From the NCBI GenBank assembly GCA_905372565.1, contig CAJPPK010000007.1:11997-75996 (forward strand): a DNA stretch of 64,000 nucleotides, read 5' to 3'. Positions 16,851-49,701 of the stretch are shown here, piece after piece; positions within the stretch are counted from its first letter, which is position 1; each line of letters starts with the position of its first letter. The notes beneath the pieces are model-generated. The model worked only from the letters and a program-made list of their open reading frames with translations. It made no database searches and was not told the DNA's origin. The translations under genes were made by a program, and so were the position numbers. Source of the stretch: an uncultured Porphyromonas sp. (GTDB taxonomy: Bacteria; Bacteroidota; Bacteroidia; Bacteroidales; Porphyromonadaceae).

Positions 16851-16923
16851 ACCGAACTTCCCCCTTGCACTTTTACTACTGAGACCTACCAAGCGAAGTA
16901 TATAACGATAAACGAGCTATAGT

Positions 16924-18332: not shown

Positions 18333-19942
18333 TTGATTTGGTGCGCTTTATCCTACGAGGTCACAAGTGGAGCATCCTACTGATCCTCTTGCTGGGGTTA
18401 GGGACAGTAGTGACTAACCTGGCTTTCATTTGGCTCTCTAAGAGTGTCATTGATATAGCGTCGCACCAGCGAGGAGGCTCTATACACACCTTTTCCTTTG
18501 CCCTGGTTCTTACACTGGCCCTTCAGGTGCTCTGTCGTGTCGCCTCCGTGCGTCTGTCGAGCTATACAGGGGCAAAGATGAGTAATGATGTCCAGTCTAA
18601 GGTCTTCTCTCATCTACTCTATACTCGCTGGTCAAGTCTCGGGCACATACATAGTGGAGATCTCGTCGTCCGTATGTTGAAGGACACTGAGACCCTCGTG
18701 ACTTTCTTCGTCTCCTCGCTCCCTACAGCGATTATTTCCTCTGCACAGCTCATCGGGGCACTCCTACTCCTCTACTATTTTAGTCCTACACTGGCTCTAA
18801 TTTTAGGTGTCGGGATGCCACTCTTGGCTCTCTTCAGCAAGCTCTACTATAAGCGCATGCGTCGCTATACCGATGAGATGAAGCAGGCTGAGAGTGTGAT
18901 CACGGCACATGTGCAGGAGACCCTGATGAATCAGACAGTCATACGCACTTTCGAGCGTCAAGGCACCGCCATCGATCACTTACACATGCGTCAAGGGCAG
19001 TATCTGCGTGCTGTGGGGCGACAGACCGTCGTGTCCGTCTTTGCGAATCTACTGATGCAGGGGGCCTTCGCTGGGGGATATATCATCGCTTTCCTATGGA
19101 GCGCCCGAGAGCTCTTCGCTGGGGCGATTACCTTCGGACTCATGACGTCCTTCCTCCAGCTCGTAGCACGCATTCAGTCACCACTCAATACCCTCATCCT
19201 TCAGTTACCAGGGCTCATTAGCTCGAAGTCTTCCTTGGATCGTCTGGTGAATCTGCTAGAGTTCAAGACCGAGCAGATGGGTAGAGCTGTGCGACTGACA
19301 GGGAATAACTTCCGTCTCGAAGTCGAAGGGCTCTCCTTCCGCTATGAGGAGGATGAAGCCTGGGTTTATCGGAACTTCAGTCTCTCTGCTGGACGTGGAG
19401 AGATGATCGCCCTCATGGGGCGTACAGGAGCGGGGAAGACGACACTCCTTCGTCTCCTTCTCGGGCTGATCACACCGACTGAGGGACGTATCACGCTACA
19501 GACGCCTCAAGCGATCTACTCCGTCAATGAAGCTACTCGAGGGAACTTCGTGTACATACCGCAGGGAGGGAGTCTCTTCAGTGGGACGATCCGTGAGAAC
19601 CTCCTTCTCGGGGACGAAGATGCCTCGGAGGAGCGACTTCGTCGGGTCTTGTACTTAGCGGTCGCTGACTTTGTCTTCGACCTCCCGAAGGGACTAGATA
19701 CCCTGATCGGTGAGCGAGGTGTAGGCCTCTCCGAAGGACAGGCACAGCGCATTGCTATCGCCCGTGCTCTCCTACGCCCTGGTAAGATCTTACTCCTAGA
19801 TGAAGCAACTTCTGCTCTCGATCAGGAGACCGAGACACGCTTCTTAGAGCACCTTCGCCGTGAGGCAGGTGATCGCCTTATTCTCTTCATCACGCACCAC
19901 CCCGAGGTGGCTGCACGATGTGATCGCACGCTCCATATCTAG
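18329..19942 (+). CDS. ABC exporter, fused permease/ATPase half-transporter
   Basis: 537 aa. Six-TM N-terminal domain, Walker A GRTGAGKTTLL, signature LSEGQAQRIAIARAL, and Walker B ILLLDEATSALD. There is no C39 peptidase domain. Confidence 0.9.
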   Translation: MIDLVRFILRGHKWSILLILLLGLGTVVTNLAFIWLSKSVIDIASHQRGGSIHTFSFALVLTLALQVLCRVASVRLSSYTGAKMSNDVQSKVFSHLLYTRWSSLGHIHSGDLVVRMLKDTETLVTFFVSSLPTAIISSAQLIGALLLLYYFSPTLALILGVGMPLLALFSKLYYKRMRRYTDEMKQAESVITAHVQETLMNQTVIRTFERQGTAIDHLHMRQGQYLRAVGRQTVVSVFANLLMQGAFAGGYIIAFLWSARELFAGAITFGLMTSFLQLVARIQSPLNTLILQLPGLISSKSSLDRLVNLLEFKTEQMGRAVRLTGNNFRLEVEGLSFRYEEDEAWVYRNFSLSAGRGEMIALMGRTGAGKTTLLRLLLGLITPTEGRITLQTPQAIYSVNEATRGNFVYIPQGGSLFSGTIRENLLLGDEDASEERLRRVLYLAVADFVFDLPKGLDTLIGERGVGLSEGQAQRIAIARALLRPGKILLLDEATSALDQETETRFLEHLRREAGDRLILFITHHPEVAARCDRTLHI

Positions 19943-35682: not shown

Positions 35683-36558
35683 ATGAAACATGCCTACATG
35701 ATCCTAGCTCATGGCGAGCCTGAGCTATTGCAGCTTCTTCTAGAACGGCTAGATGATCCACGGAATGATATCTACATCCATCTAGATCAGAAGTGGACCA
35801 ATCCTCCTAAGCTGGCGACAAAGCAGGCTAAACTCTTTCTGCTAACTAAGCGAGTGGATGTTCGCTGGGCAGATGTGAGTATGCTTGAGGCGGAGTATGC
35901 GCTCTTTCATGCGGTAAAAGACTCTGGGCAGAGTTACGCCTATCACCATCTCCTCTCAGGAGTGGATCTTCCGATAAAGACGCAAGACTATATCCATCAA
36001 TTCTTCCTCGAGAATAATGGGAAGGAGTTTGTGGGAATTCATCAGCGCCCTATGAGCTTCCGAGCTGATCGGGCTCTGCATTATTGGCATCCTTTCACGC
36101 GCTCTTTTCGAGGAAAGGGAGTTGCGTTTCAGCTTAAACGTATCCTACGTTACCTCATTGTACAGGTGCAGGTGCTACTTGGCCTCCGACGTAATGTCTC
36201 CATCTCTTTCCAGAAGGGAGGACAATGGGTCAGTATCACTTCAGATCTTGTGGATTATCTCCTAAAGCATGAAGAGCCGGTCTTGTCTTGCTATGCTGGG
36301 ACATTTGGAGCCGATGAGTATTTTATTCCTACTCTTCTCTGGAATTCTCCGTTGCGAGAGCGTCTCTATTGTGCAACGGATGAGACGCTCGGAGCTATGC
36401 GTTATATAGGGTGGCGATCCGATGGTCAACTCCTCGCTTTTAGCTCAGAGGATTTACCTGAGCTCCAGCAGACCTCTTGTCTTTTTGCTCGTAAGTTTGA
36501 TCTTCGTGATCGATCTTTCTTAGAAAAGGTCCTTCTCCTTTCCAAGCCGACTCCTTAG
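35683..36558 (+). CDS. Glycosyltransferase family 14 (core-2/I-branching type)
   Basis: 291 aa. The N-terminus MKHAYMILAHGEPELLQLLLERLDDPRNDIYIHLD is typical of the bacterial GT14 family. Confidence 0.7.
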   Translation: MKHAYMILAHGEPELLQLLLERLDDPRNDIYIHLDQKWTNPPKLATKQAKLFLLTKRVDVRWADVSMLEAEYALFHAVKDSGQSYAYHHLLSGVDLPIKTQDYIHQFFLENNGKEFVGIHQRPMSFRADRALHYWHPFTRSFRGKGVAFQLKRILRYLIVQVQVLLGLRRNVSISFQKGGQWVSITSDLVDYLLKHEEPVLSCYAGTFGADEYFIPTLLWNSPLRERLYCATDETLGAMRYIGWRSDGQLLAFSSEDLPELQQTSCLFARKFDLRDRSFLEKVLLLSKPTP

Positions 36559-36571
36559 ATTTATCACTTCT

Positions 36572-37549
36572 ATGCTACCTCCCTTAGTCTCTATCATTAT
36601 TCCCGTCTATCGAGCAGAGAAGACTCTCCCTGCGTGCCTAGACCAGCTTAAGGCGCAGAGCTATCGTAGTCTCCAGTTGATATTCATTGATGATTGTAGC
36701 CCTGATGGGAGCTATGCTTACCTCACATCACAGCGGGGGGAGCTTGAAGCATTGGGGATGGAGGTGACCTTACTACGGCATGAGAAGAATCAGGGAGTTG
36801 CAGTAGCTCGTAATACAGGATTAGACGCAGCTCACGGAGAGTATATTTACTCTGTGGATGCAGATGACCGTCTTGCTGATAATGCGATTGAGTTGCTTGT
36901 GAAAGCAGCTGAGCAGAGCCAGATGGATGTGGTTGGTTGTGAGTACTACCTTGAGGAAGGCGCTCATGCACGTCAGATTCATCAGCCTGATGTTAAGACG
37001 GGGCAAGAGGCATTTCAACAGATCTGTTATGGGCGGATGAAGTGGAACCTCTGGCTCTTCTTATTCCGACGAGAGCTCATTGAGAAACCTGAGCCCTTAC
37101 GCTTCCTGCCGGGGAAGAATATGGGAGAAGATCTTATGCTTTTGGGGCGTCTACTTGATCGAGCCAATGGTGTTGAGATCATTCATCAGCCTCTATATAC
37201 ATATGTTCGCTCGGACGAACAGATCACAGGGTCTTACCGGCCAGAGCATTGGTCTCAGGTTTTTGCTAATCTAGAGATGCTTGATTCCTCACTCTCTTCG
37301 GAGGCTCGAGCTTATATCCCTTATCTTAAGCTGACTCTTAAACGCCCTCTTCTCGTCACGGGAAAGAAAGCTGACTATCATCGTTGGACAGATACTTATC
37401 GGGAGACAGATCCTTTTATCATGCAGAATCCTAGTCTTCCCTTTCGCTCTAAGATTCTTGAGCAAATGGCGGCTAAAGGACAATATTGGTATGTTGCCTT
37501 GTACTACCATGTCGTGATGCGTGGACTGTATTCACTTTTCTATCGGTAG
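36572..37549 (+). CDS. Glycosyltransferase family 2
   Basis: Motifs VSIIIPVYRAEKTL, DDCSPDGS and SVDADD (DXD). Confidence 0.85.
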   Translation: MLPPLVSIIIPVYRAEKTLPACLDQLKAQSYRSLQLIFIDDCSPDGSYAYLTSQRGELEALGMEVTLLRHEKNQGVAVARNTGLDAAHGEYIYSVDADDRLADNAIELLVKAAEQSQMDVVGCEYYLEEGAHARQIHQPDVKTGQEAFQQICYGRMKWNLWLFLFRRELIEKPEPLRFLPGKNMGEDLMLLGRLLDRANGVEIIHQPLYTYVRSDEQITGSYRPEHWSQVFANLEMLDSSLSSEARAYIPYLKLTLKRPLLVTGKKADYHRWTDTYRETDPFIMQNPSLPFRSKILEQMAAKGQYWYVALYYHVVMRGLYSLFYR

Positions 37550-37559
37550 AACATAGCCT

Positions 37560-38834
37560 ATGTGGAAGATTGTCCAGGTTCTGCTTATTGCAGTCTTAGT
37601 TAACTGCTCTTACTACTCTTTTAGCTTTGCGGCTTTCCCAAATGCGCCTAACACGAAGATGCTTTTGGCGATGCTGGGGCTTTTATGGTTCCTTTTTGAC
37701 TCCTGGCGCCGAGGGAAGGGGGTTCCTTTCTCTCCAACGATGCTTACAGGAACGATCTTTGCAGGGCTGTATTCATTAGTTAACCTCATCGCTATCGAAA
37801 TTAATGATACGAATGACTATAGTTATGCCAACTACCTAACGACTTTCTTCGTCTGGGTCTTCAGTGTCTATCCAGCCTTAAGTTTGATGCGTATCGTTCA
37901 TGGATCCATCACGATCCCACGCATAACTTATTACCTAACAGCTGTGACAGTCTTCCAGTGTATTACTGCTCTTCTTATTGATAATTACCCTGGGTTTGAT
38001 GACTTCTGTTCGAGCATTGTTTTTTGGAGCTTAGAGTTTTTTGCTAGTATTGATCGTCTACGCTGTTTCAGTACAGCACTTGATCCAGCAGGAGTACGCT
38101 TTGCTCTTGTTCTTATACTTATTGCCGCAACGATCTGTGTCGATGAGCAGGTGCAGCAAAGTTACCTGAGACTTTATCTGCTTTTCATTGCTTATCTTCT
38201 CATTTCAGGGATTGGAAATATGGTTGCGAGAACTACATCCTCAGGGATGGGACTTGGGCTTCTTATACTTTTGATTCACAGTAATGCTGTTGGACTGAAG
38301 GTGCGTTCCTCTATGGTGCGTACTATGTCCATTTTTGCAGGTTTGCTTCTCATCGCGTTTGGTGTAGGGATTTACTTGTATAACACGAGTGACTATTATC
38401 GTGGACTATTAGAGTTTGCATTTGAGGGATTTTTCAGCCTCTTCAATCAAGGGGAGTTTCAGACAAGCTCGACAGACGTTTTGGCTACGATGTGGATTTG
38501 GCCAACGGATATGCAAACTTGGATCATTGGCTCTGGGATTTATGGCAGTTTTGCCTTTGGATCTGATATTGGTTACTGTCGATTGATCCTTTATTCGGGG
38601 TTGGTGGGTTTTGGCTTATTTGCTCTTAGCTTTATTTACTATGCTTTTCATTTCGCTGGTAAGTATCGTCCCTATCGCTGGCTCTTCTTGGCCTACTTAG
38701 CCATGACCTTTATTATTTGGATGAAGGTGTCGACTGATATTATGATGATTTATGCGTTCTTCTTTTGGTTTACTAAGCAAGAGGAAGATGCGATTAATGG
38801 TCTCATCCCTTTGGCTCAAAATACTGACGTATGA
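37560..38834 (+). CDS. O-antigen/capsule polymerase (Wzy-like) polytopic membrane protein
   Basis: 424 aa with 10 or more predicted TM segments and a large loop (..QGEFQTSSTDVLATMWIWPTD..). This is the most AT-rich gene of the locus by eye. Confidence 0.6.
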   Translation: MWKIVQVLLIAVLVNCSYYSFSFAAFPNAPNTKMLLAMLGLLWFLFDSWRRGKGVPFSPTMLTGTIFAGLYSLVNLIAIEINDTNDYSYANYLTTFFVWVFSVYPALSLMRIVHGSITIPRITYYLTAVTVFQCITALLIDNYPGFDDFCSSIVFWSLEFFASIDRLRCFSTALDPAGVRFALVLILIAATICVDEQVQQSYLRLYLLFIAYLLISGIGNMVARTTSSGMGLGLLILLIHSNAVGLKVRSSMVRTMSIFAGLLLIAFGVGIYLYNTSDYYRGLLEFAFEGFFSLFNQGEFQTSSTDVLATMWIWPTDMQTWIIGSGIYGSFAFGSDIGYCRLILYSGLVGFGLFALSFIYYAFHFAGKYRPYRWLFLAYLAMTFIIWMKVSTDIMMIYAFFFWFTKQEEDAINGLIPLAQNTDV

Positions 38835-39982
38835 AGATCATCTATTGTATCCCAGCGACCTCTAACTCGGGAGGAATGGAGCGCGTCCTAGCGAGGAAGG
38901 TGAATTACCTAGCAGAGCGTGGCTATGAGCTAGCGATTATTACTACCGATCAGCGAGGGAAGGCTCCCTTTTTCCCACTCCATGCTAGCATCACGCAGTA
39001 TGATCTGGGGATCAATTACGATGAGAACAACGGTCAAGGGCTTCGGGCGAAGCTGAGAGCATATCCACGAAAGAAGCGCCTGCATCGTGAGCGACTCTCC
39101 AAACTATTAGTAGAGCTTCAGGCTGACATTGTCATCTCTATGTTTGGGGATGATGCGGACTTTCTGCCAAGTATTCAAGATAGCAGTCGTAAGGTGCTGG
39201 AGTATCACTTCTCAAAGCTCAAGCGCCTGCAATATGGTCGTAAGGGACTTTGGCGTATGATCGATCACTACCGCACGTGGCGTGATGAGTCTACGGTGCG
39301 AGGCTATGATCGCTTCGTTGTTTTGACGGCCGAAGATGCAGGATACTGGGGAAGCCTTCCAAATATCCAAGTGATCCCCAATCCTTTGCCATTTACTTCT
39401 GAAGAAGTCTCAGATTGTACCTCCAAGCGAGTCCTCGCTGCTGGGCGGTATGACTTCCAGAAGAATTTCTCCCTCCTTCTGCGGATTTGGTCTCAGATCG
39501 CTCCCAGCTATCCGGACTGGAAGCTGGAGATTATCGGGGATGGAGCGCTCCGTCCCGCCTTGGAGGAGGAAGTTGTACAGCTAGGACTCTCATCTTCTGT
39601 CGAGCTCTCTCGTCCGACCCAAGAGATGCAGGCGGTCTATCTGCATTCTTCTGTCTATGCGATGACTTCTCGCTATGAGGGGCTACCTATGGTGCTGATC
39701 GAAGCGCAACAGATGGGACTGCCTATTGTCTCTTTTGCTTGTCCTTGTGGTCCACGTGATGTGATCCATGAGGGCGAAGATGGATTCCTGATACCCTTAG
39801 GCGAGGAAGACGCCTTCGTCCGTGCACTACGTCTGCTCATGGACTCTGAGGCAGAGCGCCAGCGTATGGGACGGGCAGCTCGTCTCTCTTCTGCTCGCTA
39901 TGATGTAGACACGATCATGGCGCATTGGATCCAGCTCTTCGATACCCTCTCCGTTACTCCTTCTTCAACTCCTGTCTCATGA
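38831..39982 (+). CDS. Glycosyltransferase family 4
   Basis: GT-B C-terminal motif EGLPMVLIEAQQMGLPIVSF. ATGA overlap with the upstream gene. Confidence 0.85.
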   Translation: MKIIYCIPATSNSGGMERVLARKVNYLAERGYELAIITTDQRGKAPFFPLHASITQYDLGINYDENNGQGLRAKLRAYPRKKRLHRERLSKLLVELQADIVISMFGDDADFLPSIQDSSRKVLEYHFSKLKRLQYGRKGLWRMIDHYRTWRDESTVRGYDRFVVLTAEDAGYWGSLPNIQVIPNPLPFTSEEVSDCTSKRVLAAGRYDFQKNFSLLLRIWSQIAPSYPDWKLEIIGDGALRPALEEEVVQLGLSSSVELSRPTQEMQAVYLHSSVYAMTSRYEGLPMVLIEAQQMGLPIVSFACPCGPRDVIHEGEDGFLIPLGEEDAFVRALRLLMDSEAERQRMGRAARLSSARYDVDTIMAHWIQLFDTLSVTPSSTPVS

Positions 39983-41082
39983 AGCGAATAGTCATCTCTG
40001 CGGTCAATCTTCGCAAGGGAGGGACGCTGACTATCCTACGCCAATGTCTTTCGTTCCTCTCCGAGTGGGCTCCTAAAGCAGGCTACGAGGTCGTCGCTCT
40101 AGTGCATAAGCAGGAGCTCGCGGACTATCCTAATATTCGCTACATCGAGCTCCCTTGGGCTGCTACTGGCTGGCTCAAGCGTCTGTGGTGTGAGTATGTC
40201 ACCATGGGGAAGATCTCCCAAGAGCTGGGAGAGATCGATTTATGGCTGTCTCTTCATGATACAACGCCTCGAGTGAAGGCGAAGCGTCAGGCAGTTTATT
40301 GCCAGACGTCCTTCCCATTCTTGAAGTGGCGGTGGAGAGATTTTAGCTTTGATAAGAAGATCCCTCTCTTTGCGATGTTCACCCGCTTTGCTTACCAGTT
40401 CGGAATTCGGAGAAATAGTTACCTCGTTGTCCAGCAGGAATGGTTACGTGAGGGCTTTAGTCGCATGTTTGGCTTGCCTAAGGAGCGCTTTATCGTTGCG
40501 CCACCACCTCGAGAGCCTTTACCCAAGCTGGACCTTAAGAAAGAGGAGGGGGCACCCTTTAACTTCCTCTATGCAGCGACCCCTGATGGGCATAAGAACT
40601 TCGAGTTGCTCTGTGAGGCTACGCAGGAGCTGGAGCGACGTGTTGGGAAAGGGAAGTTCCGCACCATCCTCACGATCAGTGGACAGGAGAATAAGTACGC
40701 CCGTTGGCTCTATGAGCAATGGGGGACCTGCTCTAGTCTTGATTTCCGGGGATTCCTTTCCAAGGAGGAGCTACAGAAGACATACGCTTTGACGGACTGT
40801 CTGGTGTTCCCTTCACGTATCGAGACATGGGGGTTACCGATCTCGGAGTTCTTGCCTTATGAGCGCCCCATGCTCTTGGCAGACCTCCCCTATGCCCATG
40901 AGACCTCTCGGGGAGCGGTCGCTGTAGGCTTCTTTAATCCTACTCAAGTCAATGATCTAGTCGATGCTATGCAGGCTGTCCTGGAGGGGCATTTAGAAGG
41001 GCTAAAGGGGCAACAGTGTTGCCCCATCGGAGGCAATACTGTTGCCTCTTGGGAGGCACTACTGTTGCTCCTTTTGGGTTAA
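39979..41082 (+). CDS. Glycosyltransferase (GT-B, family 1/4-like)
   Basis: The ATG at 39979 overlaps the preceding stop (ATGA). Motif ETWGLPISEFLPYERPMLLAD. The last ~25 codons and the stop codon lie inside repeat L4. Confidence 0.75.
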   Translation: MKRIVISAVNLRKGGTLTILRQCLSFLSEWAPKAGYEVVALVHKQELADYPNIRYIELPWAATGWLKRLWCEYVTMGKISQELGEIDLWLSLHDTTPRVKAKRQAVYCQTSFPFLKWRWRDFSFDKKIPLFAMFTRFAYQFGIRRNSYLVVQQEWLREGFSRMFGLPKERFIVAPPPREPLPKLDLKKEEGAPFNFLYAATPDGHKNFELLCEATQELERRVGKGKFRTILTISGQENKYARWLYEQWGTCSSLDFRGFLSKEELQKTYALTDCLVFPSRIETWGLPISEFLPYERPMLLADLPYAHETSRGAVAVGFFNPTQVNDLVDAMQAVLEGHLEGLKGQQCCPIGGNTVASWEALLLLLLG

Positions 41083-41092
41083 CACTAGCAAC
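41009..41092 (+). repeat. Family-1 element, copy L4, overlapping the 3' end of a glycosyltransferase gene
   Basis: Units at 41009 (GGCAACAGTGTTGCC, self-palindromic), 41032, 41055 and 41078 (23-bp period). It lacks the CCAACTAGTA leader. The next ATG is at 41101. Confidence 0.8.
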
Positions 41093-41100
41093 ACTGAACT

Positions 41101-42225
41101 ATGAAGATATTACAACTAGGAAAGTTCTATCCGATCCGTGGTGGAGTCGAGAAGGTGATGGAGATCTTCACCGAAGGGCTAGCCGAGCGTGGCTATGCTT
41201 CGGATATGCTCTGTGCTTCTCATGATGGACGGGTCGATGACATCATCTTGGGCGACGAATCGAAGATCATGCGCACCAAGACGTGGATGAAGCTAGCCGC
41301 CACGATGATTTCACCAGCGATGATCTGGCGCCTACGTAAGATCTGCCGTGAGTATGACATTATCCACATTCACCACCCAGATCCGATGGCGACAGTGGCA
41401 CTCTTCTGCTCGGGCTATAAGGGGAAGGTTGTCCTGCATTGGCATAGCGACATCTTGAAGCAGAAGTTTCTTCTTCGCTTCTTTGCTCCCCTACAGAATT
41501 GGCTCATCCGTCGAGCTGACTTGATCCTCGGCACGACACCTGTCTATGTGAAGGAGTCTCCCTTCCTAAGTAAGGTGCAGTTGAAGACGGGCTACCTGCC
41601 TATCGGGGTCGATCCACACCCTTGGCTAGCCGATGAGATCCGTGAGATCCGCCAGCAGTATCCTGACAAGAAGATCCTCTTTAATATCGGGCGTCTAGTC
41701 TCCTACAAGGGGTACCAGTATCTCATCGAAGCCATGGTACACCTTCCTCAGGAATATGTCTTGCTTATCGGAGGGAAAGGTCCGCTCAAACAAGAGCTAC
41801 AAGAGTTCATCGATCGCTTGGGCCTCCAGGAGCGTGTTAAGCTTCTAGGCTTCATCTCGGATACGCTTAAGCCTGCCTACTTCGGAGCTTGCGATGTCTT
41901 CTGTCTCAGCTCCACGCTCAAGACCGAGGCTTATGCCATCGTGCAGGTCGAAGCGATGTCTCTTGGACGACCTATCGTCGCTACCGAGATCCCTGGGTCA
42001 GGTGTAGCATGGGTCAATGCCCACCAAGAGTCTGGCCTGAATGTCCCGATCGAAGATGCTCCAGCACTCGCTCAGGCCATTCAGAAGATTTGCCAAGATC
42101 CCGAGCTCTGGAGCTCCTATAGCAAGGGTTCACGCCAACGTTTCTTCGAAATCTTTACGAAGGATGAGATGATCAACCAGCTCATTCGTATCTATACAGA
42201 ACTCCTCCATCCTACCATCCCATAG
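41101..42225 (+). CDS. Glycosyltransferase family 4
   Basis: 374 aa with the GT-B motif KTEAYAIVQVEAMSLGRPIVAT. Confidence 0.85.
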   Translation: MKILQLGKFYPIRGGVEKVMEIFTEGLAERGYASDMLCASHDGRVDDIILGDESKIMRTKTWMKLAATMISPAMIWRLRKICREYDIIHIHHPDPMATVALFCSGYKGKVVLHWHSDILKQKFLLRFFAPLQNWLIRRADLILGTTPVYVKESPFLSKVQLKTGYLPIGVDPHPWLADEIREIRQQYPDKKILFNIGRLVSYKGYQYLIEAMVHLPQEYVLLIGGKGPLKQELQEFIDRLGLQERVKLLGFISDTLKPAYFGACDVFCLSSTLKTEAYAIVQVEAMSLGRPIVATEIPGSGVAWVNAHQESGLNVPIEDAPALAQAIQKICQDPELWSSYSKGSRQRFFEIFTKDEMINQLIRIYTELLHPTIP

Positions 42226-42235
42226 TACGGAATCT

Positions 42236-42832
42236 ATGAATACAATCGAACGATTTATCAAGCGAGCTTTTGACTTCTCGCTAGCACTTGTCTCTCTTGT
42301 CGTCTTCTCTCCGCTTATTGCCTTGATCGCTCTATTGATCAAGTGGGAGGATCCTCAAGGGGATGTCATCTATAAACAGGAGCGTATTGGCTATAAGGGA
42401 CGTCCCTTTATCCTCTACAAGTTCCGCTCCATGCGTATGGATGCGGAGGCAAATAACTCTCCTCAGCTTTTTACCGATGGCGATAGCCGTCTGACGAAGG
42501 TCGGAGCTTTCATCCGTGCTCACCACTTGGATGAATTCCCTCAGCTATGGAATGTGATCAAGGGAGAGATGTCCTTTGTTGGTCCTCGCCCCGAGCGTCA
42601 GTTCTTCATCGATCAGATCATGGAGCATAACCCCGACTATACTCGTCTTTATGCTGTGCGTCCAGGGCTCTTCTCCTATGCGACGCTCTACAATGGGTAT
42701 ACTGATACGATCGAGAAGATGCTGGAGCGCCTACGTCTAGACCTGAAGTATCTAGATAACTACTCCCTCTGGGTAGATGTGAAGATCATCTTCCTTACTG
42801 CCTTTTCTATTATATTTGGTAAGAAATTCTAA
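42236..42832 (+). CDS. Priming sugar-phosphate transferase (small bacterial sugar transferase / PGT family)
   Basis: 198 aa with one N-terminal membrane helix and the motif DEFPQLWNVIKGEMSFVGPRP. Confidence 0.9.
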   Translation: MNTIERFIKRAFDFSLALVSLVVFSPLIALIALLIKWEDPQGDVIYKQERIGYKGRPFILYKFRSMRMDAEANNSPQLFTDGDSRLTKVGAFIRAHHLDEFPQLWNVIKGEMSFVGPRPERQFFIDQIMEHNPDYTRLYAVRPGLFSYATLYNGYTDTIEKMLERLRLDLKYLDNYSLWVDVKIIFLTAFSIIFGKKF

Positions 42833-42844
42833 ACGACTCACGAT

Positions 42845-43708
42845 ATGATAATGATCAAAAGACTCTTTCGCTCGAGTGTGTTTGCTCTTGGCGCTTTGTT
42901 GACGCTGGCACTCTCCTCCTGTGACTCTGCATACCGTACGAACTATCTGCAGGATATCGAGACGGCCAAGGCTTATGGAGTTAAGTATAACTCGGAGATT
43001 GTGGTTCAGAAGGGAGACAAGCTACGTATCTTGGTCTCCAGTCTGCGTAATCCCGAGTTGACTCTACCTTTCTCCAATCGTACTATTGGAGTAGCAGTCC
43101 CTTCTGCTCTTCAGGGGGATAAGGTCGCTGCAGCAGATACGACATCGTCTTACCTAGTCGATGCTCAGGGGAATATCCAGTTCCCGATCCTCGGCAATCT
43201 CCCTGTCCAAGGCCTCAGCCTTGATCAAGTGAGTGAGCTCGTTCAGTCTCGCTTGATCGCAGGGAAGTATCTGGCAGACGCCCATGTGACGACCAAGTTT
43301 GATAACCTTCGTGTTTACCTTCTTGGTGCCTTCGAAGGAATTGTTACGGGTAGTGCAGGTAGCCAGGGGGTCGCTGATCGTGGATCTTTCCATCTTGATA
43401 ATCCACAGACCAATATCCTGGAGCTGATCGCCCGCACGGGTGGACTCTCCGAACGAGCAGACTTCTCAAAGGTGAATGTTATTCGCCGTGTCGGGAACGA
43501 GTATGTCTACTATCGCCTGGATATGCTCTCGAAGAATATCTTCGACTCTCCAGCTTTCTATCTGCAGCAGAATGACATTATCTATGCTGAGTATCGCTAT
43601 CGTACACGAGATACAGAGCAGAAGGTTCTCAGCACCGTGGGCTATGTCACGACGGCGATGTCTACCATCGTTTCCGCTGTTGCTCTTGTCACCCTTCTTA
43701 AGCGTTAG
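42845..43708 (+). CDS. Polysaccharide export outer-membrane lipoprotein (Wza/BexD-like)
   Basis: Lipobox LALSSC. Poly_export/SLBB-type motifs (VVQKGDKLRILV; PILGNLPVQGLSLDQVSELVQSRL). Confidence 0.8.
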   Translation: MIMIKRLFRSSVFALGALLTLALSSCDSAYRTNYLQDIETAKAYGVKYNSEIVVQKGDKLRILVSSLRNPELTLPFSNRTIGVAVPSALQGDKVAAADTTSSYLVDAQGNIQFPILGNLPVQGLSLDQVSELVQSRLIAGKYLADAHVTTKFDNLRVYLLGAFEGIVTGSAGSQGVADRGSFHLDNPQTNILELIARTGGLSERADFSKVNVIRRVGNEYVYYRLDMLSKNIFDSPAFYLQQNDIIYAEYRYRTRDTEQKVLSTVGYVTTAMSTIVSAVALVTLLKR

Positions 43709-46113
43709 TGGTAATGGCTAATCAAGATAATAGACCAGCGGTAAAGCAGGACTCGGCAAGTGAGATTAACCTGCTAGATATCTTCTTCTACCTACTCCGC
43801 TACTGGTACCTTTACGTGTTAAGCGTAGGACTTATCGTAGCCTTCGCACTCTATCGTAATGCTAAGCAGCCTTACGTCTATGAGTCTTCCGTGAAGATCT
43901 TCATCAAGGATGCTTCGCAGCGAGCCATGATGGATGCTGATGTGCTACGCTTTGCTCGAACCAATCGACTCAACATGGATAACGAGCAGATGCAGCTGAC
44001 CTCAAGGCGAGTCATCGAGCGCACCGTGAAGATGGCTAATGCCAATGTCTTTTATAAGGCACAGGAAGGCCTTCGCCAGATTGAGCTTTATAACGAGTCT
44101 CCTTTCTCTATGAAGTTCCTCGATACGCTTGATCGTGCGACCTCTTTTGTCGTGCGTTATAGTGATGCGGGACATGCTTTAGTCATCCCCGCTGGGCGGA
44201 AGAAGGCCATTACGGTACCTCTTAATGTCCCTGTCAAGATTGGAGAAGAACGCTTTATTATCGAGCCACGTGATAGTTACAACAGTCCATGGAAACATGC
44301 TTCGATACAGGTACAGAGAGCATCTTTCTCTCAGACTGTACGCTATTACCAAAAGGCCGTTACGATTACTCAACCAGTAAATCGTGCCTCTACGCTGACT
44401 CTTGATCTACAGGATCAGAATAAGAAGCGTGCACTAGATATTCTCTTAGCCCAGGTCGCAGCATACAACCAAGAAGAACTTGATATGCGCAATCAGGTCG
44501 CTAAGAATACGGCAGACTTCGTGAATGATCGTTTGGCTACCCTTAGCCAGGAGCTAGGTTTGGTAGAAGGCGACATGGAGCGTTTCCTCATCTCAAACCG
44601 AACGATTGACTTTGATAGCAAGGTGGGGCGCTTCAACTCTCGCTCCGCTGAGACCGAAACGCAGGTTCTAGAGATTGAGACCCAGCTCAAGCTCGTTTCC
44701 TATATGCTTTCACAGATCAATTCTGCTGGCAAGCAATACGGATATCTTCCGCTAAATATTGGAGCTCCTGATCCAGCCCTTGATGGCTATATCAATCAGT
44801 ATAACCAGCTCAAGTCTCAGCGTGATAAACTCATCGAGGGAGCGGGAGGAAGCACAGAGAATCCTGTGATTACTGAGTATGATCGTGCTCTAGATGAACT
44901 TCGTCGCAGTGCTGTCGAAAGTCTAAATCAGCGTGCTTCTCTCCTTCGTGCACGTCTTAAGGATACAGAGGGTATTCAGTCAAGCCTCCTCTCTAAACTT
45001 CCAGAAGTCTCTAATCAAGGTCGTGAAAAGGCCGATATCGATCGTCGCCTAGAGATCCGTCAGGCTCTCTATACCGAGCTCCTAAACAAAAGAGAAGAGT
45101 ATGCTCTACGTCAGGCAATGACGCAGGATAGCGCAACCATCCTTGATATGAATGATGCGCCAGCTCCTCCTATTAGCCCTAATACGACGCGAGCGGTTCT
45201 AATCGCCCTACTTGTAGGATTGGCTCTCCCATCGATCTTCTTGATCATTCGTCTTCTCTCCGATAATAAGGTGCGTAGCCGTAAGGATATCATGGATAGA
45301 GTCTCCATCCCCTTCCTTGGCGATATTCCTAAGGAAGAAGAGGCTCGTCGTGGTCATACACGTGGTGCTCGTGAGCAGGGCTCTGATGAGACTTCTGAGG
45401 CCTTCCGCGTCCTCCGTGAGAATCTCCGCTTCATGGTTAACTCTAGTGAAGGTGAGTCAAAGAAGAAGATCATCTTTACCTCGTTTGGTGAGTCTGCAGG
45501 TAAATCTTATGTGTCTTATAACCTAGCCAAGACGCTTGGTTTTGCTGGTTATCGAGTTGCCTTGGTAGACCTTGATCTGCGTAAGGGTACGCTATCTCGA
45601 CGTATAGGGCTCTCTGGAGTAGGGGTTACCGAGTATCTGGCTAATGGAGATATCCAGCTTGCTCAGATTATTCGTAAGGATCCTAATGATCCGAAGCTCT
45701 CTGTTGTGATTGCTGGTGCTGTGCCTCCTAATCCTGCCGAGCTCCTTCTTGGCCGTCGTTTAGATCAGTTGGCAGATGCACTCAGTGCTGAGTATGACTA
45801 TGTGATCTTCGATAACGTGCCCTTCGGTAGTGTCGCTGATGCTGCTATTGCTAACCGTGTGGCTGACCTAACGATCTTTGTTCTGCGTGCAGCTAAGCTC
45901 GATCGCCGCGCTCTGCCTGAGCTCCAGCGTCTCTATGATGAAGATATCCTTCGTAATATGGCTCTTGTCCTCAATGGTGCTACGGAGAGTGGTCATGGTT
46001 ATGGCTACGGCTACGGTTATGGCTATGGTTACGGCTATGGCTATGGTTATGGCAACAAGAAAAAGAAGAGCCCACTACGCCGTCTTCTTCGTCGCTTAGG
46101 TATTAAGCGTTAA
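43708..46113 (+). CDS. Polysaccharide co-polymerase / BY-type tyrosine autokinase (Wzc-like)
   Basis: 801 aa. Wzz-type N-terminal domain with coiled coils, a second TM segment, a P-loop FGESAGKS, DLDLRKG, Walker B YDYVIFDNVP, and a C-terminal (GY)9 cluster. The true start may be the ATG at 43714. Confidence 0.9.
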   Translation: MVMANQDNRPAVKQDSASEINLLDIFFYLLRYWYLYVLSVGLIVAFALYRNAKQPYVYESSVKIFIKDASQRAMMDADVLRFARTNRLNMDNEQMQLTSRRVIERTVKMANANVFYKAQEGLRQIELYNESPFSMKFLDTLDRATSFVVRYSDAGHALVIPAGRKKAITVPLNVPVKIGEERFIIEPRDSYNSPWKHASIQVQRASFSQTVRYYQKAVTITQPVNRASTLTLDLQDQNKKRALDILLAQVAAYNQEELDMRNQVAKNTADFVNDRLATLSQELGLVEGDMERFLISNRTIDFDSKVGRFNSRSAETETQVLEIETQLKLVSYMLSQINSAGKQYGYLPLNIGAPDPALDGYINQYNQLKSQRDKLIEGAGGSTENPVITEYDRALDELRRSAVESLNQRASLLRARLKDTEGIQSSLLSKLPEVSNQGREKADIDRRLEIRQALYTELLNKREEYALRQAMTQDSATILDMNDAPAPPISPNTTRAVLIALLVGLALPSIFLIIRLLSDNKVRSRKDIMDRVSIPFLGDIPKEEEARRGHTRGAREQGSDETSEAFRVLRENLRFMVNSSEGESKKKIIFTSFGESAGKSYVSYNLAKTLGFAGYRVALVDLDLRKGTLSRRIGLSGVGVTEYLANGDIQLAQIIRKDPNDPKLSVVIAGAVPPNPAELLLGRRLDQLADALSAEYDYVIFDNVPFGSVADAAIANRVADLTIFVLRAAKLDRRALPELQRLYDEDILRNMALVLNGATESGHGYGYGYGYGYGYGYGYGYGNKKKKSPLRRLLRRLGIKR
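45997..46050 (+). repeat. Hexanucleotide coding repeat (GGY-TAY)x9 encoding (Gly-Tyr)9
   Basis: The sequence reads ggt tat ggc tac ggc tac ggt tat ggc tat ggt tac ggc tat ggc tat ggt tat. Synonymous positions vary between units. Confidence 0.9.
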
Positions 46114-46128
46114 GCTTTTCTCCTTCAA

Positions 46129-47103
46129 GTGTCCTTTTCTTCCTCCCCGCTACTCTCGGTTATTGTACCCGTCTACAACGTTGCTCCCTATTTAGAGCAA
46201 TGTGTGGAGTCTATCCTTAGTCAGCCCTACAAGGCTCTAGAGGTGATTCTTGTAGATGATGGGGCGACCGATGGTAGCGGGGAGCTTTGTGATCGTCTTG
46301 CTCAGTCTGATGAGCGGGTACGTGTCCTGCATCAGCCGAATGCCGGGCTTTCTGCAGCGAGGAATGCTGCTCTAGAGCAACTCTCGGGAGAGTTCTTTAC
46401 GTGTGTTGACTCGGACGACTGGTTGCCTGAGGACGCGTGGATCTGTCCGATGAGCTACTTGGAGGAGCACTCTGAGGTAGACTTGTTAGAGCTCGGCTAT
46501 GTCGAGGTCGTGGAGCATACTGGTGCGGAGAAATGGATCCTGCACACAGGAGCTTCACTAAGTCCTCAGGAGGCCGTTGAGTCTTTGGCTAAGCTCTCAG
46601 GTGTGACCGGGATGGCCTGGGGGAAGATCTTCCGTACCTCTGTTCTGGGAGGTCTACGCTTCCCTGTCGGACGTCCCTATGAAGATATTTCTTTCGTCTT
46701 TGAAGCGCTGTGTCATACACGTAGCTATCGCTATATGTCATGGCAGGGATACTTCTATCGCATCGGGCGAGCAGGGAGTATTACAGAGCGTTACGATGCC
46801 CGCTTAGCTTATCTCTTTACGAATCTTCAGGAGCTGACGCCTATGGTTGAGAGAATCGCACCGGCCTATCTCCCTTGGCTGAATGAGACCCTCTATCGGC
46901 GACTATTGATTTTCTCTCTTTGGGGTATACGTCATCGGAAGGAATCTCCTGACCTACTCCCAGCTTTACTCCCTTGGGCTAGTCGACTTCGTGGGCTTAG
47001 TTATCCTCAAGCCTCGTGGAGGAATGTGCTTCGGAGGGAGTTATTTCTTCGCTTCCCTCGTCTCTTCCTAGCGGGGAAACGACTTACTTCTATATTATCC
47101 TAA
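46129..47103 (+). CDS. Glycosyltransferase family 2
   Basis: Motifs LSVIVPVYNVAPYLEQC, VDDGATDGS and VDSDD. GTG start. Confidence 0.85.
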   Translation: MSFSSSPLLSVIVPVYNVAPYLEQCVESILSQPYKALEVILVDDGATDGSGELCDRLAQSDERVRVLHQPNAGLSAARNAALEQLSGEFFTCVDSDDWLPEDAWICPMSYLEEHSEVDLLELGYVEVVEHTGAEKWILHTGASLSPQEAVESLAKLSGVTGMAWGKIFRTSVLGGLRFPVGRPYEDISFVFEALCHTRSYRYMSWQGYFYRIGRAGSITERYDARLAYLFTNLQELTPMVERIAPAYLPWLNETLYRRLLIFSLWGIRHRKESPDLLPALLPWASRLRGLSYPQASWRNVLRRELFLRFPRLFLAGKRLTSILS

Positions 47104-47118
47104 TACCTTATTACACCT

Positions 47119-47997
47119 ATGGATACCTCTTTGATCTATTGTGTAGCTCAAGAATATATCATCGTACATACTCCCTCTAAGGAAGCTACTCGTGCTCTCC
47201 TTCCTAATTATGAGCCCTTCCTCGTAGAGGAGCTCCCGGAGGGTAAGGAGCCTCTCTTTACGTTTGAAGGAGGGGCTGATCTGACGGCCTACCCACGGAA
47301 GGCTCTCCTAGAGGATAAGCTCTCCGAAGGTCTACGTGCTCGTGTCTACCAGACGACGAACTCGGAGATCCTCCTAGAGCTTACGGCTAATCAGCGTCGC
47401 CATGTGCTCCATGTCGATAAGTCATGGAGTAGAGTGATCTCCGATGTCCTACTTGACGATCCAAGCGCAGCCTACTTCATCAACCGACTCATCATGATCG
47501 TCTATGGAGTGGCTATCGCACCGTGGAAGATGCTGAAGATGCATGCTTCTGTCACGGAGCTCGATGGGAAGGCTCTACTCTTCCTCGGTGTTAGTGGCAC
47601 GGGTAAAAGCACCCATAGCCGTCTGTGGCGTAAGTTCGTCCTAGGAGCTACGCTACTTAATGATGATGAGCCTATCGTACGCCTATTGCCCAGTGGCGAG
47701 GTGCGTGTCTTTGGTTGTCCATGGAGTGGTAGTACTCCCTGCTATCGTCAGGCTTCAGCAGAGGTCGTGGCGTTTGTCCATCTTCATCAGAGCACTGAGA
47801 ACAAACTCACGAAGCTGCGCGGGCGCAATAGCTTTGATTCGATCTACTCCTCGACGGCCTTCCTGCATTCAGATAAAGCCCGTCATATGGCGACCTTTGA
47901 TACGATCGTGGATATCCTAGAGCGTATCCCTGTTTATCGCCTCGACTGTCGTCCAGATGAAGAGGCTGTCGCTCTCACACGTACCCTTCTACCCTAA
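47119..47997 (+). CDS. HPr-kinase-like P-loop protein (HprK C-terminal-domain-related)
   Basis: 292 aa. The P-loop GVSGTGKSTHSRLW is followed by NDDEP, as in HprK-related kinases. It starts 15 nt after the GT2 stop. Confidence 0.55.
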   Translation: MDTSLIYCVAQEYIIVHTPSKEATRALLPNYEPFLVEELPEGKEPLFTFEGGADLTAYPRKALLEDKLSEGLRARVYQTTNSEILLELTANQRRHVLHVDKSWSRVISDVLLDDPSAAYFINRLIMIVYGVAIAPWKMLKMHASVTELDGKALLFLGVSGTGKSTHSRLWRKFVLGATLLNDDEPIVRLLPSGEVRVFGCPWSGSTPCYRQASAEVVAFVHLHQSTENKLTKLRGRNSFDSIYSSTAFLHSDKARHMATFDTIVDILERIPVYRLDCRPDEEAVALTRTLLP

Positions 47998-48007
47998 TTA
48001 GAGTAAG

Positions 48008-48499
48008 ATGAAGCCAGATGTTCCTTCGATGGACGAGCGCCGAAGGCAACTGATCATTCGGAATGAGCTCTTCTTTACAGAGCTCCTCGCCCGCATCGCA
48101 GAGGGTAAGCGTCCCCGTATACGCCCTCGGGGATCGAGCATGCTTCCCTTCATCCGTGGAGGGAAGGATACGGTGGATCTAAGTGCACTCACAGAGGATT
48201 CGCTGCAGGTAGGACGCATTGTCCTAGCTCATATCCCCCAGGGCTACCTTGTGCATCGTATCGAGCGCATCGATGGTGACCGCTTCACGCTGCGGGGCGA
48301 TGGTAATCGTGAGCAACGTGAGTACTGCACCCGTGAGCAGATCCTTGCTGAGGTCGTCGAGGTGCAGCGTGGCAAGCGCTCTATCCGCCCAGGCGATCGC
48401 CTCTGGTGGTGCTATGAGCATCTGTGGACGAAGAGTCCCTTTTGGCGTCGCTGGATCCTAGCGGTCTATCGGCGTACACTCCTTCGCTGGGGCCTCTAA
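48008..48499 (+). CDS. S24/S26-family serine peptidase-like protein
   Basis: 163 aa with GSSMLPFI (Ser nucleophile context) and a downstream HRIERIDGDRFTLRGDGN block. It starts 10 nt after the preceding stop. Confidence 0.65.
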   Translation: MKPDVPSMDERRRQLIIRNELFFTELLARIAEGKRPRIRPRGSSMLPFIRGGKDTVDLSALTEDSLQVGRIVLAHIPQGYLVHRIERIDGDRFTLRGDGNREQREYCTREQILAEVVEVQRGKRSIRPGDRLWWCYEHLWTKSPFWRRWILAVYRRTLLRWGL

Positions 48500-48558
48500 G
48501 GGGAGGCCTATTGAGCCAAGGAGCTTTCCCTATCACCTTTTAATTCTCTTCCTTTTTG

Positions 48559-49362
48559 ATGAAGCTTTTAGCTCTTGATATTGATGGTACGCTCATCACC
48601 CGAGCGCACCAGCTGACCGATGGTGTTCGCTCTGCTCTGATTGATGCCCAGCGTATGGGCAAGGTGCGTGTGATCCTAGCATCCGGTCGCCCTACCCCTG
48701 CTCTGCATGCGCTGAGTGAAGCGCTCCAGCTAGCCCAGTATGGAGGCTATCTGATGCCCTTCAATGGGGGAAAGATCGTCGAGGTGGCTACGAAGCGTGT
48801 GATCTCTACTCAGCTACTCGATGCCGATCTTATCCCACAGCTCTACGCCCTGACGCAGGAGTTCGGAGTCAATATTCTGACCTACACAGAGGAGTATATC
48901 CTGAGCGAAATCGAAGGAGACCCCTATGCTGAGAAGGAAGTCACGCTGACAGGTATGCCGCTGAAGGTCGTACCTAGCTTCGTCGAAGCCGTCCAAGAGT
49001 TGGTCCCGAAGTGTCTAGCTGTGGGTCCCCTGGATCGCCTAAAGCCTTTGGCCGAAGCTGTAGAAGCTCGCTTAGGAGATCGTGTATCTGCCTTCCGCTC
49101 GAGCGACTTTTTCCTTGAGCTCGTACCGAAGGGTGTGAACAAGGGTGCATCACTGGAGCGTCTCCTTCCTCTGCTAGGTAAGACGCCAGCGGATCTGATC
49201 GCTATGGGGGATAACTACAATGATGTCGAGATGATTCGTCTAGCAGGCACAGGAGTGGCTATGGGCAATGCACCTCAGGATATCCAAGCTATAGCAGACT
49301 TCATCACCCGCTCCAATGAGGAGGATGGCGTAGCCTATGCCCTAGAGCAGCTACTCCCGTAG
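48559..49362 (+). CDS. Cof-type HAD-IIB phosphatase
   Basis: Motif I ALDIDGTL and motif IV GDNYNDVEM, with a cap-domain insert. Confidence 0.9.
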   Translation: MKLLALDIDGTLITRAHQLTDGVRSALIDAQRMGKVRVILASGRPTPALHALSEALQLAQYGGYLMPFNGGKIVEVATKRVISTQLLDADLIPQLYALTQEFGVNILTYTEEYILSEIEGDPYAEKEVTLTGMPLKVVPSFVEAVQELVPKCLAVGPLDRLKPLAEAVEARLGDRVSAFRSSDFFLELVPKGVNKGASLERLLPLLGKTPADLIAMGDNYNDVEMIRLAGTGVAMGNAPQDIQAIADFITRSNEEDGVAYALEQLLP

Positions 49363-49382
49363 CTTCTCTCACATAAGAGATA

Positions 49383-49433
49383 CAGCACCGCCCCCTGCTC
49401 GCTACTTCTGGTAGTGGGCAGGGGGCGGTGCTG
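49383..49433. terminator. Bidirectional terminator hairpin between the convergent HAD and DUF4248 genes
   Basis: 16-bp GC-rich stem CAGCACCGCCCCCTGC / GCAGGGGGCGGTGCTG. Confidence 0.7.
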
Positions 49434-49443
49434 TTGGGGAGGC

Positions 49444-49701
49444 CTATGCCTGACGGGAGATCTGGTCGAATTCCTCAGGTGTGCCTAGATGGCGCAGGAG
49501 CACCTGCACCATGCTGGGTGGTAGCATCCGCTGGCGAGGGCGGAATCCCAGCTTTTGTAGCTCCGAGAGCAGCAGGGGATCCTGGCGGATGAGTAGGCGG
49601 AAGTGGCGGCTGGCTAGGTCAGCTCGCTCCTCGGGGAAGTACAGACAGGCGAGCTCCTTCATTACATAGGTACGGAAGGCGATCGAAGGGGGAGTCTTCA
49701 T
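49444..49701 (-). CDS. DUF4248-family small protein
   Basis: 85 aa. The pattern ..ELACLYFP....ASRHFRLLI..DPLLLSELQKLGF....RMLPPSMVQVLLRHLGTPE is typical of Bacteroidales DUF4248 proteins, which are often found next to polysaccharide loci. Confidence 0.6.
   Translation of the reverse strand: MKTPPSIAFRTYVMKELACLYFPEERADLASRHFRLLIRQDPLLLSELQKLGFRPRQRMLPPSMVQVLLRHLGTPEEFDQISRQA

Follow-up and report, generated by a model that had tools for sequence, protein, structure and literature searches.

A probable linear polyphosphorylated peptide-type pathway in Porphyromonas with its kinase and peptidase genes at the 3' end of a Wza-Wzc polysaccharide locus

A 64,000-nucleotide (nt) stretch of DNA from an uncultured Porphyromonas sp. 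(GenBank assembly accession number GCA_905372565.1; contig CAJPPK010000007.1, coordinates 11997 to 75996), referred to here as the window, includes a polysaccharide locus at the 3' end of which lie genes for a P-loop protein of 292 amino acids (aa) and a peptidase-like protein of 163 aa. What a kinase-like and a peptidase-like protein do in this position is the question examined here. The original prediction, made from the sequence alone, had drawn attention to the packing of the two open reading frames (ORFs), to the motifs GVSGTGKSTHSRLW...NDDEP and GSSMLPF...LRGDGN, and to a trio of PqqD, nucleotidyltransferase and ABC genes at 16.9-19.9 kb. It proposed either that a peptide-modification system had been split by rearrangement or that a kinase/peptidase pair had been recruited to polysaccharide export. 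Both ORFs, the gap of 15 nt between the stop codon of the preceding GT2 gene and the kinase gene, the gap of 10 nt between the kinase and peptidase genes, and both motifs were confirmed, as was the trio by Pfam searches (Table 1).

The pair (47119-48499) and the trio (16924-19942) are separated by 29 kb. Because of profile homology detected using hhalign, conserved catalytic residues, gene linkage and co-occurrence, the pair is predicted, with fairly high confidence, to encode the kinase and leader peptidase of a linear polyphosphorylated peptide (LPP)-type pathway for a ribosomally synthesised and post-translationally modified peptide (RiPP), the other three proteins being those encoded by the trio. 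The chemistry, the identity of the precursors and the co-transcription described below are inferred.

Relationship of the encoded proteins to LPP enzymes

LPP clusters, arranged lppA-K-B-S-D-N in Paenibacillus alginolyticus DSM5050, were discovered in Bacillota via an archaeal-type signal peptidase (Popov et al., Nat Commun 2026, PMC13381572). The original prediction knew of no experimental characterisation of either of its readings, and is superseded in this respect by the characterisation of the enzyme set in 2026. When the P. alginolyticus genes were expressed in B. subtilis, LppK added up to four phosphates to Ser3 of the core peptide, and LppS (catalytic S29, H68 and D93) cut the leader only if it was presented by LppB (PMC13381572). 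The leader motif is YxxPxVLxHQxIxFETxxS (PMC13381572). In this paper (May 2026), the only one on LPPs, they were described as restricted to Bacillota and often found in capsular polysaccharide loci, with their role unknown; the capsule co-localisation and a possible role in biofilms were raised as a passing remark (PMC13381572). Judged by accession numbers and locus tags, a gene for a bacterial tyrosine kinase (BY-kinase) appears to lie a few genes from lppA in P. alginolyticus.

The P-loop protein is encoded by a single-copy gene, and its motif corresponds to residues 157-185. Residues K140, H142 and S144, the P-loop G157-H166, and N181-D182-D183-E184-P185 were invariant in 14 diverse homologues. 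More than 4,000 homologues were found at 90% clustering; those with a named source are all from Bacteroidales, with oral, gut and rumen species represented, and every homologue carries the precomputed Pfam label PF27840, an accession newer than the library searched here. The protein fell below every curated cut-off, scoring 28.6 bits against ScmC (TIGR04249; cut-off 125) and 21.2 bits against HprK_rel_A (TIGR04352; cut-off 200), and the Pfam search gave a weak PEPCK_ATP match and no Hpr_kinase match. An AlphaFold2 model (pLDDT 93.8) was most similar in the PDB to ATP-dependent PEP carboxykinase (Foldseek E 1.5e-7, TM ~0.5) and then to HprK/P (E 4e-5). As these fold matches are accompanied by the invariant residues, an HprK-style assignment holds in prediction at the superfamily level, with the catalytic His, P-loop and Asp set intact. 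The P-loop fold and the His...GxSGxGKS(T)...DD layout are shared with HprK/P and PEPCK. However, neither family model reaches its cut-off, the N-terminal domain differs, and the gene partners suggest a peptide substrate rather than HPr or oxaloacetate. When the kinase family was compared with LppK, the sequence of which was taken from the machine-read text of Supplementary Fig. 23 (PMC13381572), hhalign gave a probability of 96.2% (E 2.6e-9) over 143 columns. LppK also shows the same weak PEPCK_ATP match.

The peptidase motif spans residues 42-100, and G42, S44, M45, P47, H83-R84 and G97-D98-G99-N100 were invariant in 16 homologues. With such conservation, the motifs of the two proteins are not fortuitous. 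The position of the general-base Lys is occupied by the invariant His83 of an HR motif, as in SipW/Sec11-type (S26B) enzymes. In the active-site check set by the original prediction, an active site was thus present in both proteins, although the second has S44 with His83 as the base in place of the Ser/Lys dyad of S24 (LexA/UmuD-type) peptidases. The PF00717 score was 15.7 bits (cut-off 23.3), and LppS shows the same weak S24 match. The best profile matches among PDB sequences were SEC11A and SEC11C, and a model (pLDDT 84.7) matched the folds of LexA, UmuD, SEC11 and SipA (clan SF). Based on the invariant residues and these profile and fold matches, the 163-aa protein is predicted to be a clan-SF SipW/Sec11-type Ser-His peptidase, with which it shares the GxSMxP...HR...GDxN motifs and the use of Ser-His in place of Ser-Lys. 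In contrast to SipW/Sec11, it appears from its sequence to lack an N-terminal membrane anchor: no hydrophobic segment was seen by eye, residues 1-40 are charged, and the model places a helix at 19-31. In LppS an N-terminal helix contacts the RiPP recognition element (RRE), and the charged N-terminus of the window peptidase is likewise helical. SipW/Sec11 enzymes cleave secretion signals, whereas an LppS-type enzyme, as the window peptidase is taken to be, acts on a cytoplasmic leader peptide. The family aligned with LppS over 118 columns (hhalign probability 98%, E 2.4e-13), with S44 opposite S29 and H83 opposite H68 at the same 39-residue spacing.

For the trio, the best NCBIfam match of the PqqD protein was a lasso PqqD chaperone. 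Its residues N35 and D73 align with N33 and D70 of LppB, which fix the YxxP leader, and this N/D pair was invariant in all 50 PqqD sequences aligned, the window protein and LppB included. LppB itself matches the PqqD family (E 2.4e-14) and LppN matches PF14907 (E 7.7e-26); pairwise BLASTP of LppB and LppN against their window counterparts was not significant, and the family membership is that given by Pfam. The ABC exporter has MsbA- and LssB-type NCBIfam matches (~E 1e-71) that are below their cut-offs, and it moves as a unit with PqqD and PF14907 in relatives.

By homology to the P. alginolyticus system, the PqqD protein would bind the YxxP leader of a short precursor peptide, the kinase would place at least one phosphate on a Ser of this peptide, and the Ser/His peptidase would remove the leader from the peptide presented by the PqqD protein. 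The PF14907 enzyme may attach a further group to the phosphate, and the ABC pump would export the product.

The phosphorylated lasso peptide clusters of paeninodin (pade) and pseudomycoidin (psm) are also similar, combining an HPr-kinase homologue that phosphorylates a precursor Ser with a nucleotidyltransferase that attaches one or more hexoses to the phosphate, a PqqD-type B1 protein and an ABC exporter (PMC8498205). However, the window set has neither a lasso cyclase (C) nor a Cys-protease B2, leader removal would fall to the Ser/His S26-type peptidase, and the product is presumably linear.

Table 1. Coordinates of the genes and features discussed (window coordinates unless a contig of the same genome, C3, C16, C19 or C23, is named)
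Feature	Coordinates	Strand	Details
Kinase-like ORF	47119-47997	+	292 aa; LppK-like, HprK/PEPCK-fold P-loop phosphotransferase (predicted)
Peptidase-like ORF	48008-48499	+	163 aa; LppS-like, soluble SipW/Sec11-type S26 peptidase, Ser44/His83 (predicted)
PqqD-family protein	16924-17190	+	88 aa; LppB-like discrete RRE; PF05402 E 7.9e-14
PF14907 nucleotidyltransferase	17187-18332	+	381 aa; LppN-like; PF14907 E 1.4e-38
ABC exporter	18329-19942	+	537 aa; LppD-like, MsbA-type, transmembrane and nucleotide-binding domains; ABC_membrane and ABC_tran
Polysaccharide locus, with the pair at its 3' end	35683-47103	+	Pfam assignments
Priming sugar transferase	42236-42832	+	Pfam
Wza	42845-43708	+	Pfam
Wzc	43708-46113	+	Pfam
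GT2, last gene before the pair	46129-47103	+	Pfam; stop at 47103
HAD/Cof gene	48556-49362		3' of peptidase gene
Perfect 25-bp GC-rich hairpin	49382-49434	+	After HAD gene; likely transcription-unit end
Candidate precursor	C16:6668-6808		46 aa; MKKLAYERPELTPLLLKTNLSLLLDFSINGSTDDIEYEGDWDSIQD
Candidate precursor	C23:601-768		55 aa; MNKIYKESYQAPEAKTFVLPQSLHLLVGFSFDGDLEDPEFDDNWGRPGTRGTNNL
Lipoprotein gene paired with C16 candidate	C16:6836-8107		423 aa
Lipoprotein gene paired with C23 candidate	C23:797-2209		470 aa
Polysacc_synt-family (PF01943) gene	C19:14486-15277
Polysacc_synt-family (PF01943) gene	C3:49957-50781

Linkage and co-retention of the five genes

The context of the kinase gene was examined in 80 loci obtained from a scan of species-representative genomes, with neighbours identified by tblastn using the window's proteins. 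The peptidase gene was found directly after the kinase gene in 72 loci, a PqqD gene within ~3 kb of it in 63, and PF14907 and ABC exporter genes near it in 33 and 35, respectively. All five genes were contiguous in 20 loci, and the commonest order was kinase, peptidase, PqqD, PF14907, ABC. Absence of enrichment near PqqD genes would have spoken against the original prediction, and the opposite was found.

Three variant arrangements were also seen. In the Prevotellaceae type, the kinase, peptidase and PqqD genes stand together alone, and PF14907 was located elsewhere in all 14 such genomes searched; it was present in each of the 19 genomes of the search that included this type. In the embedded type (loci L046, L051, L055, L071 and L078), the order is priming transferase, PqqD, PF14907, kinase, Wza, Wzc, and the peptidase gene was located elsewhere in four of five genomes. 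The Porphyromonas type, which is the arrangement in the window, is the third variant.

All-against-all clustering of the ORFs in the 80 loci revealed no recurrent family corresponding to a lasso cyclase or a B2 leader peptidase. The recurrent families besides the five cassette genes were lipoprotein, peptide, secreted-protein, rpoD and polysaccharide genes. The rpoD gene beside Prevotellaceae cassettes was rejected as a member of the system, as this is plain synteny and the gene is 82% identical to the housekeeping gene. The HAD/Cof gene was likewise rejected, as it adjoins the pair in no related locus.

Prevotellaceae-type loci (L033-L044, L050, L058, L060, L070, L079 and L080) encode a conserved secreted protein of ~150 aa directly upstream of kinase-peptidase-PqqD, without an informative Pfam match and in several cases by rpoD. 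In the embedded locus of Phocaeicola plebeius (L051; coordinates 16886 to 19528), an 881-aa protein with fimbrillin-like (Mfa_like_1) and CotH kinase domains is encoded between Wzc and an LppS-like gene, and an OmpA-family gene is next. Another embedded locus, L071, is on a contig labelled as an uncultured Rickettsiales metagenome-assembled genome (MAG). As its kinase is nearly identical to that of P. plebeius (branch length 0.015), the contig is probably misbinned.

Distribution was then assessed in 86 genomes of the window's family. The kinase was found in 26 of these and the peptidase in exactly the same 26. Of the 26 carriers, 24 also had PF14907, which was absent from the other 60 genomes (naive Fisher p = 3e-19); the carriers without it were G197 (94% complete) and G199 (54% complete). 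This co-occurrence bears on another reading, in which the P-loop protein, as a PEPCK/HprK-superfamily kinase, phosphorylates a small molecule such as a sugar or lipid-linked polysaccharide intermediate, and the peptidase is an unrelated neighbour. The best PDB fold matches are indeed PEP carboxykinases, the only Pfam match is the weak one to PEPCK_ATP, and the gene is inside a glycan locus. However, LppK has the same weak match yet is a peptide Ser kinase (PMC13381572), the protein is shorter than 300 aa and its alignment with PEPCK reaches only the modest TM value given above, and the kinase and peptidase genes are adjacent in most loci and co-occur without exception in the family. A small-molecule kinase is therefore considered very unlikely.

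In 21 of the 26 carriers, or 22 if a contig break in G176 is bridged, the pair follows a Wzc orthologue at a distance of 0.1-2 kb; the orthologues had at least 43% identity where the gene is complete, and G198 has fragments only. In these split carriers PF14907 was on another contig or 86-156 kb away on the same one (29 kb in the window). The remaining arrangement, a contiguous cassette away from Wzc, was found in four carriers (G174, G201, G215 and G230). When the genomes were ranked by the identity of their RecG to that of the window organism, the split carriers came out as essentially a single clade (identity of 62% or more), and the four with a contiguous cassette were interspersed with non-carriers. 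Beyond the main clade, all four carriers and none of 58 other genomes had PF14907 (Fisher p = 2e-6). As the split carriers are essentially one clade, the split and the move beside Wzc are most simply explained by one ancient event, with both halves retained since, at varying distances from each other. Thus, an ancestral five-gene cassette is split in this Porphyromonas clade, and the earlier idea of a peptide-modification system divided by rearrangement is supported by the linkage in the 80 loci and by co-retention in the family.

A split cassette could also be a decaying remnant, the halves of which no longer cooperate and are kept by drift or read-through transcription. The distance between the halves, the absence of an adjacent precursor gene and the small size of the genome (1.79 Mb) are consistent with this. 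However, both ORFs are intact with invariant catalytic residues, and the split persists in ~22 genomes despite kinase identities of only 43-75%; every near-complete split-state genome except G197 keeps the two halves. Stop codons were absent from the family matches, save one TAG in the open frame of the G167 peptidase match. Decay is accordingly regarded as highly improbable, and retention of a working LPP-type pathway is preferred.

Candidate precursor peptides

No precursor gene was found within the window or beside either half of the cassette. In contiguous cassettes of Dysgonomonadaceae and some Bacteroides, the adjoining genes encode peptides of 45-75 aa with a YxxP motif and an acidic tail ending in Trp, and each of the Dysgonomonadaceae peptides adjoins a gene for a fimbrillin-like lipoprotein. 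A strict pattern derived from the Dysgonomonadaceae peptides gave no match in the window genome, though positive controls matched; this was a false negative, as a looser scan of intergenic small ORFs with [YW]xxPx[LVIFAM] revealed two candidates, on contigs C16 and C23. BLAST found no homologues in the window genome of the c8/c27 peptides, the c5 secreted protein, the c6 fimbrillin-like lipoproteins or the peptide-lipoprotein pair of locus L003.

Each candidate peptide gene begins 27-28 nt after a lipoprotein gene, and neither lipoprotein matched a Pfam family. In a genome-wide search the two peptides matched each other (E 1.5e-4), and homologous lipoprotein-peptide pairs occur in relatives. 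The inspected peptide genes of relatives adjoin a large gene, mostly one for a lipoprotein. In the main clade the peptide gene follows the lipoprotein gene, and in G174 it precedes it. In an alignment of the peptide family, K, Y, P, L, F, S and D columns are invariant, and a full-length alignment with the Dysgonomonadaceae peptides was obtained (E 2.3e-4).

A profile of the peptide family matched 25 of the 86 family genomes, with 1-10 copies each, and 24 of these 25 carry the cassette. The family is thus found in 24 of 26 carriers, among them G174 and G201 from outside the main clade, and in a single one of the 60 non-carriers. On this comparative evidence the C16 and C23 peptides are, on balance, the probable substrates of the pathway.

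When the window system is compared with LPP clusters, the same five enzyme types are found (a kinase, a Ser/His leader peptidase, an RRE with the N/D pair, PF14907 and an exporter), again without a lasso cyclase. In Pfam searches the Lpp proteins and the window proteins share one pattern (PF14907, PqqD, weak PEPCK_ATP and weak S24), the candidate precursors have a YxxP leader and a variable C-terminus, and clusters of both kinds tend toward capsule or BY-kinase loci. The differences are that the window system is in Bacteroidota, whereas LPPs were stated to be restricted to Bacillota, that its genes do not form one cluster, the K-S pair and the B-N-D trio being apart, and that the K-S pair is inside a Wza-Wzc operon. 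Identity to LppK and LppS is only ~21-25%, and the precursor candidates are unlinked, multi-copy and lipoprotein-paired, with leaders unlike that of LppA beyond YxxP. A further Bacteroidota variant is listed in Supplementary Data 1 of PMC13381572, where cluster 8 of the sequence similarity network (SSN) includes ~745-aa fusions of an SpI-like peptidase and an ABC exporter, with an RRE gene nearby, from Paludibacter propionicigenes and a Porphyromonadaceae MAG; it was not taken further in that study.

Several observations weigh against assignment to an LPP-type pathway. The catalytic D93 of LppS aligns with R104 of the window peptidase, and the only conserved acids nearby are the adjoining E105 (at least 90% of sequences) and the invariant D98, either of which could provide the third catalytic residue. 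LppN was inactive in the heterologous system (PMC13381572), so that even the model system assigns no activity to PF14907. The candidate precursors are on other contigs and adjoin neither half of the cassette. They resemble LppA over the YxxP motif only (alignment probability 3%), lack a conserved Ser at core position +3, and have their invariant Ser 21 residues after the Tyr, as opposed to 18 in LppA; this Ser, which belongs to an FS motif, is the candidate phosphosite. G215 and G230 carry the cassette without a YxxP peptide match. G170, of the same genus and 79% complete, encodes five YxxP peptides with no kinase, peptidase or PF14907 detected, which would reflect either the incomplete genome or recent loss of the cassette. 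Finally, most cassette-positive family genomes belong to one clade, meaning that much of the co-occurrence represents a single evolutionary event.

Association with polysaccharide export genes

From 35683, the polysaccharide locus consists of GT14, GT2 and Wzy-like genes, three GT4 genes, the priming transferase, Wza, Wzc and GT2; the Wzy-like gene has no Pfam match. Pfam assignments identified no Wzx flippase gene in the locus (35683-47103). The two Polysacc_synt-family genes elsewhere in the genome could supply a flippase in trans, and their presence weakened the idea that the trio's ABC exporter substitutes for the missing Wzx. The two genes of the pair have a G+C content (0.52 and 0.58) near the mean for the window (0.53), in contrast to 0.48-0.49 in the upstream polysaccharide genes, and the history of the pair may perhaps differ from that of the serotype-specific part of the locus.

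All intergenic gaps in 35683-48499 were -58 to +18 nt. The interval between Wzc and the pair lacks promoter motifs of the sigma-70-like or Bacteroidetes (TAnnTTTG) type, and a terminator-like hairpin was detected neither there nor between the GT2, kinase and peptidase genes; a promoter or terminator isolating the pair, which the original prediction had set as a counter-test, was thus not seen. The first strong structure downstream is the hairpin after the HAD gene (-59.1 kcal/mol, z-score -9.1, with none of 200 shuffles folding as well), which has no clear T-run and could be a terminator or a REP-like element. As the gaps are tight, no promoter or terminator precedes the pair and the first strong hairpin follows the HAD gene, the pair is likely to be co-transcribed with the polysaccharide locus. 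With the kinase-peptidase half at the 3' end of the Wza-Wzc operon, peptide maturation would probably be co-expressed with the polysaccharide export genes.

The 12-mer GGGGAGGCCTAT was found exactly twice in the window (48500-48511 and 49436-49447; 0.01 expected by chance), directly after the peptidase stop codon and after the large hairpin. As the two copies bracket the HAD gene and hairpin, and no HAD gene follows the pair in relatives, the bracketed segment may represent an insertion or a duplication junction.

A maximum-likelihood tree of 75 kinases was used to examine the origin of the association. A clade in which the pair follows Wzc (7 rows) and a clade of the embedded type (4 rows) each had 100/100 support. 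As these clades are in opposite halves of the tree, each adjoining cassettes unlinked to polysaccharide genes, linkage to Wza-Wzc has at least two origins in Bacteroidales. Contiguous cassettes flanked by glycosyltransferase genes were also seen in L022, L029 and L095, and such genes are near L013. Overall, polysaccharide genes were found within -6 to +9 kb in 16 of the 80 loci, and ~10% of the window genome meets the same loose criterion; a rough background for Wza/Wzc only is <1%, the genome having a single such locus. The enrichment near polysaccharide genes is therefore suggestive, not decisive.

These findings could also indicate that the pair was recruited to act on the polysaccharide machinery (for example Wzc, Wza, a glycosyltransferase or an envelope protein) independently of any RiPP precursor. 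The packing of the pair into the Wza-Wzc operon, its position after a Wzc orthologue in most family carriers, the second independent clade with PqqD-PF14907-kinase between the priming transferase and Wza, the flanking glycosyltransferases in three contiguous cassettes, and the embedding of LPP clusters of Bacilli in capsule loci (PMC13381572) all point in this direction. However, the pair is accompanied in the genome by PqqD and PF14907 partners, ~64 of the 80 loci have the cassette near no polysaccharide gene, and four family carriers keep it apart from Wzc. In addition, the homologous LppK and LppS act on an RRE-presented peptide (PMC13381572), and the RRE of this system retains the residues that bind the YxxP leader. 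Recruitment independent of a peptide is hence judged unlikely. The pair may still have been recruited to polysaccharide export in the sense of the original prediction, as linkage to Wza-Wzc has at least two independent origins and an equivalent link was reported for the LPP clusters of Bacillota (PMC13381572).

Within the preferred LPP-type reading, it is possible, though still doubtful, that the phosphopeptides are linked in function to the Wzc-dependent production of capsule or exopolysaccharide, and that their maturation genes have been repeatedly selected into Wza-Wzc operons, at least two times in Bacteroidales and also in Bacilli. If so, enzymes of the locus might glycosylate the phosphorylated peptide further, or the peptide might serve the polysaccharide, or the precursor-paired lipoproteins, as a surface or export factor.

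While the LPP enzyme set has been known since 2026, what is new here is the phylum, the separation of the cassette into two halves, the location of one half at the 3' end of a Wza-Wzc operon, and precursor candidates that are unlinked and lipoprotein-paired. The pathway would be extended to a second phylum via a very large Bacteroidales family, and co-retention of the separated halves serves as a natural test, with the outcome that the five genes form one system. The lipoprotein-paired, multi-copy YxxP peptides are concrete substrates to test, and the recurrent insertion beside Wza-Wzc in two phyla makes the remark on capsules and biofilms a testable hypothesis. If the tie to the capsule is true, this Porphyromonas, with its pair at the operon's 3' end, would offer a natural setting for probing the role of LPPs.

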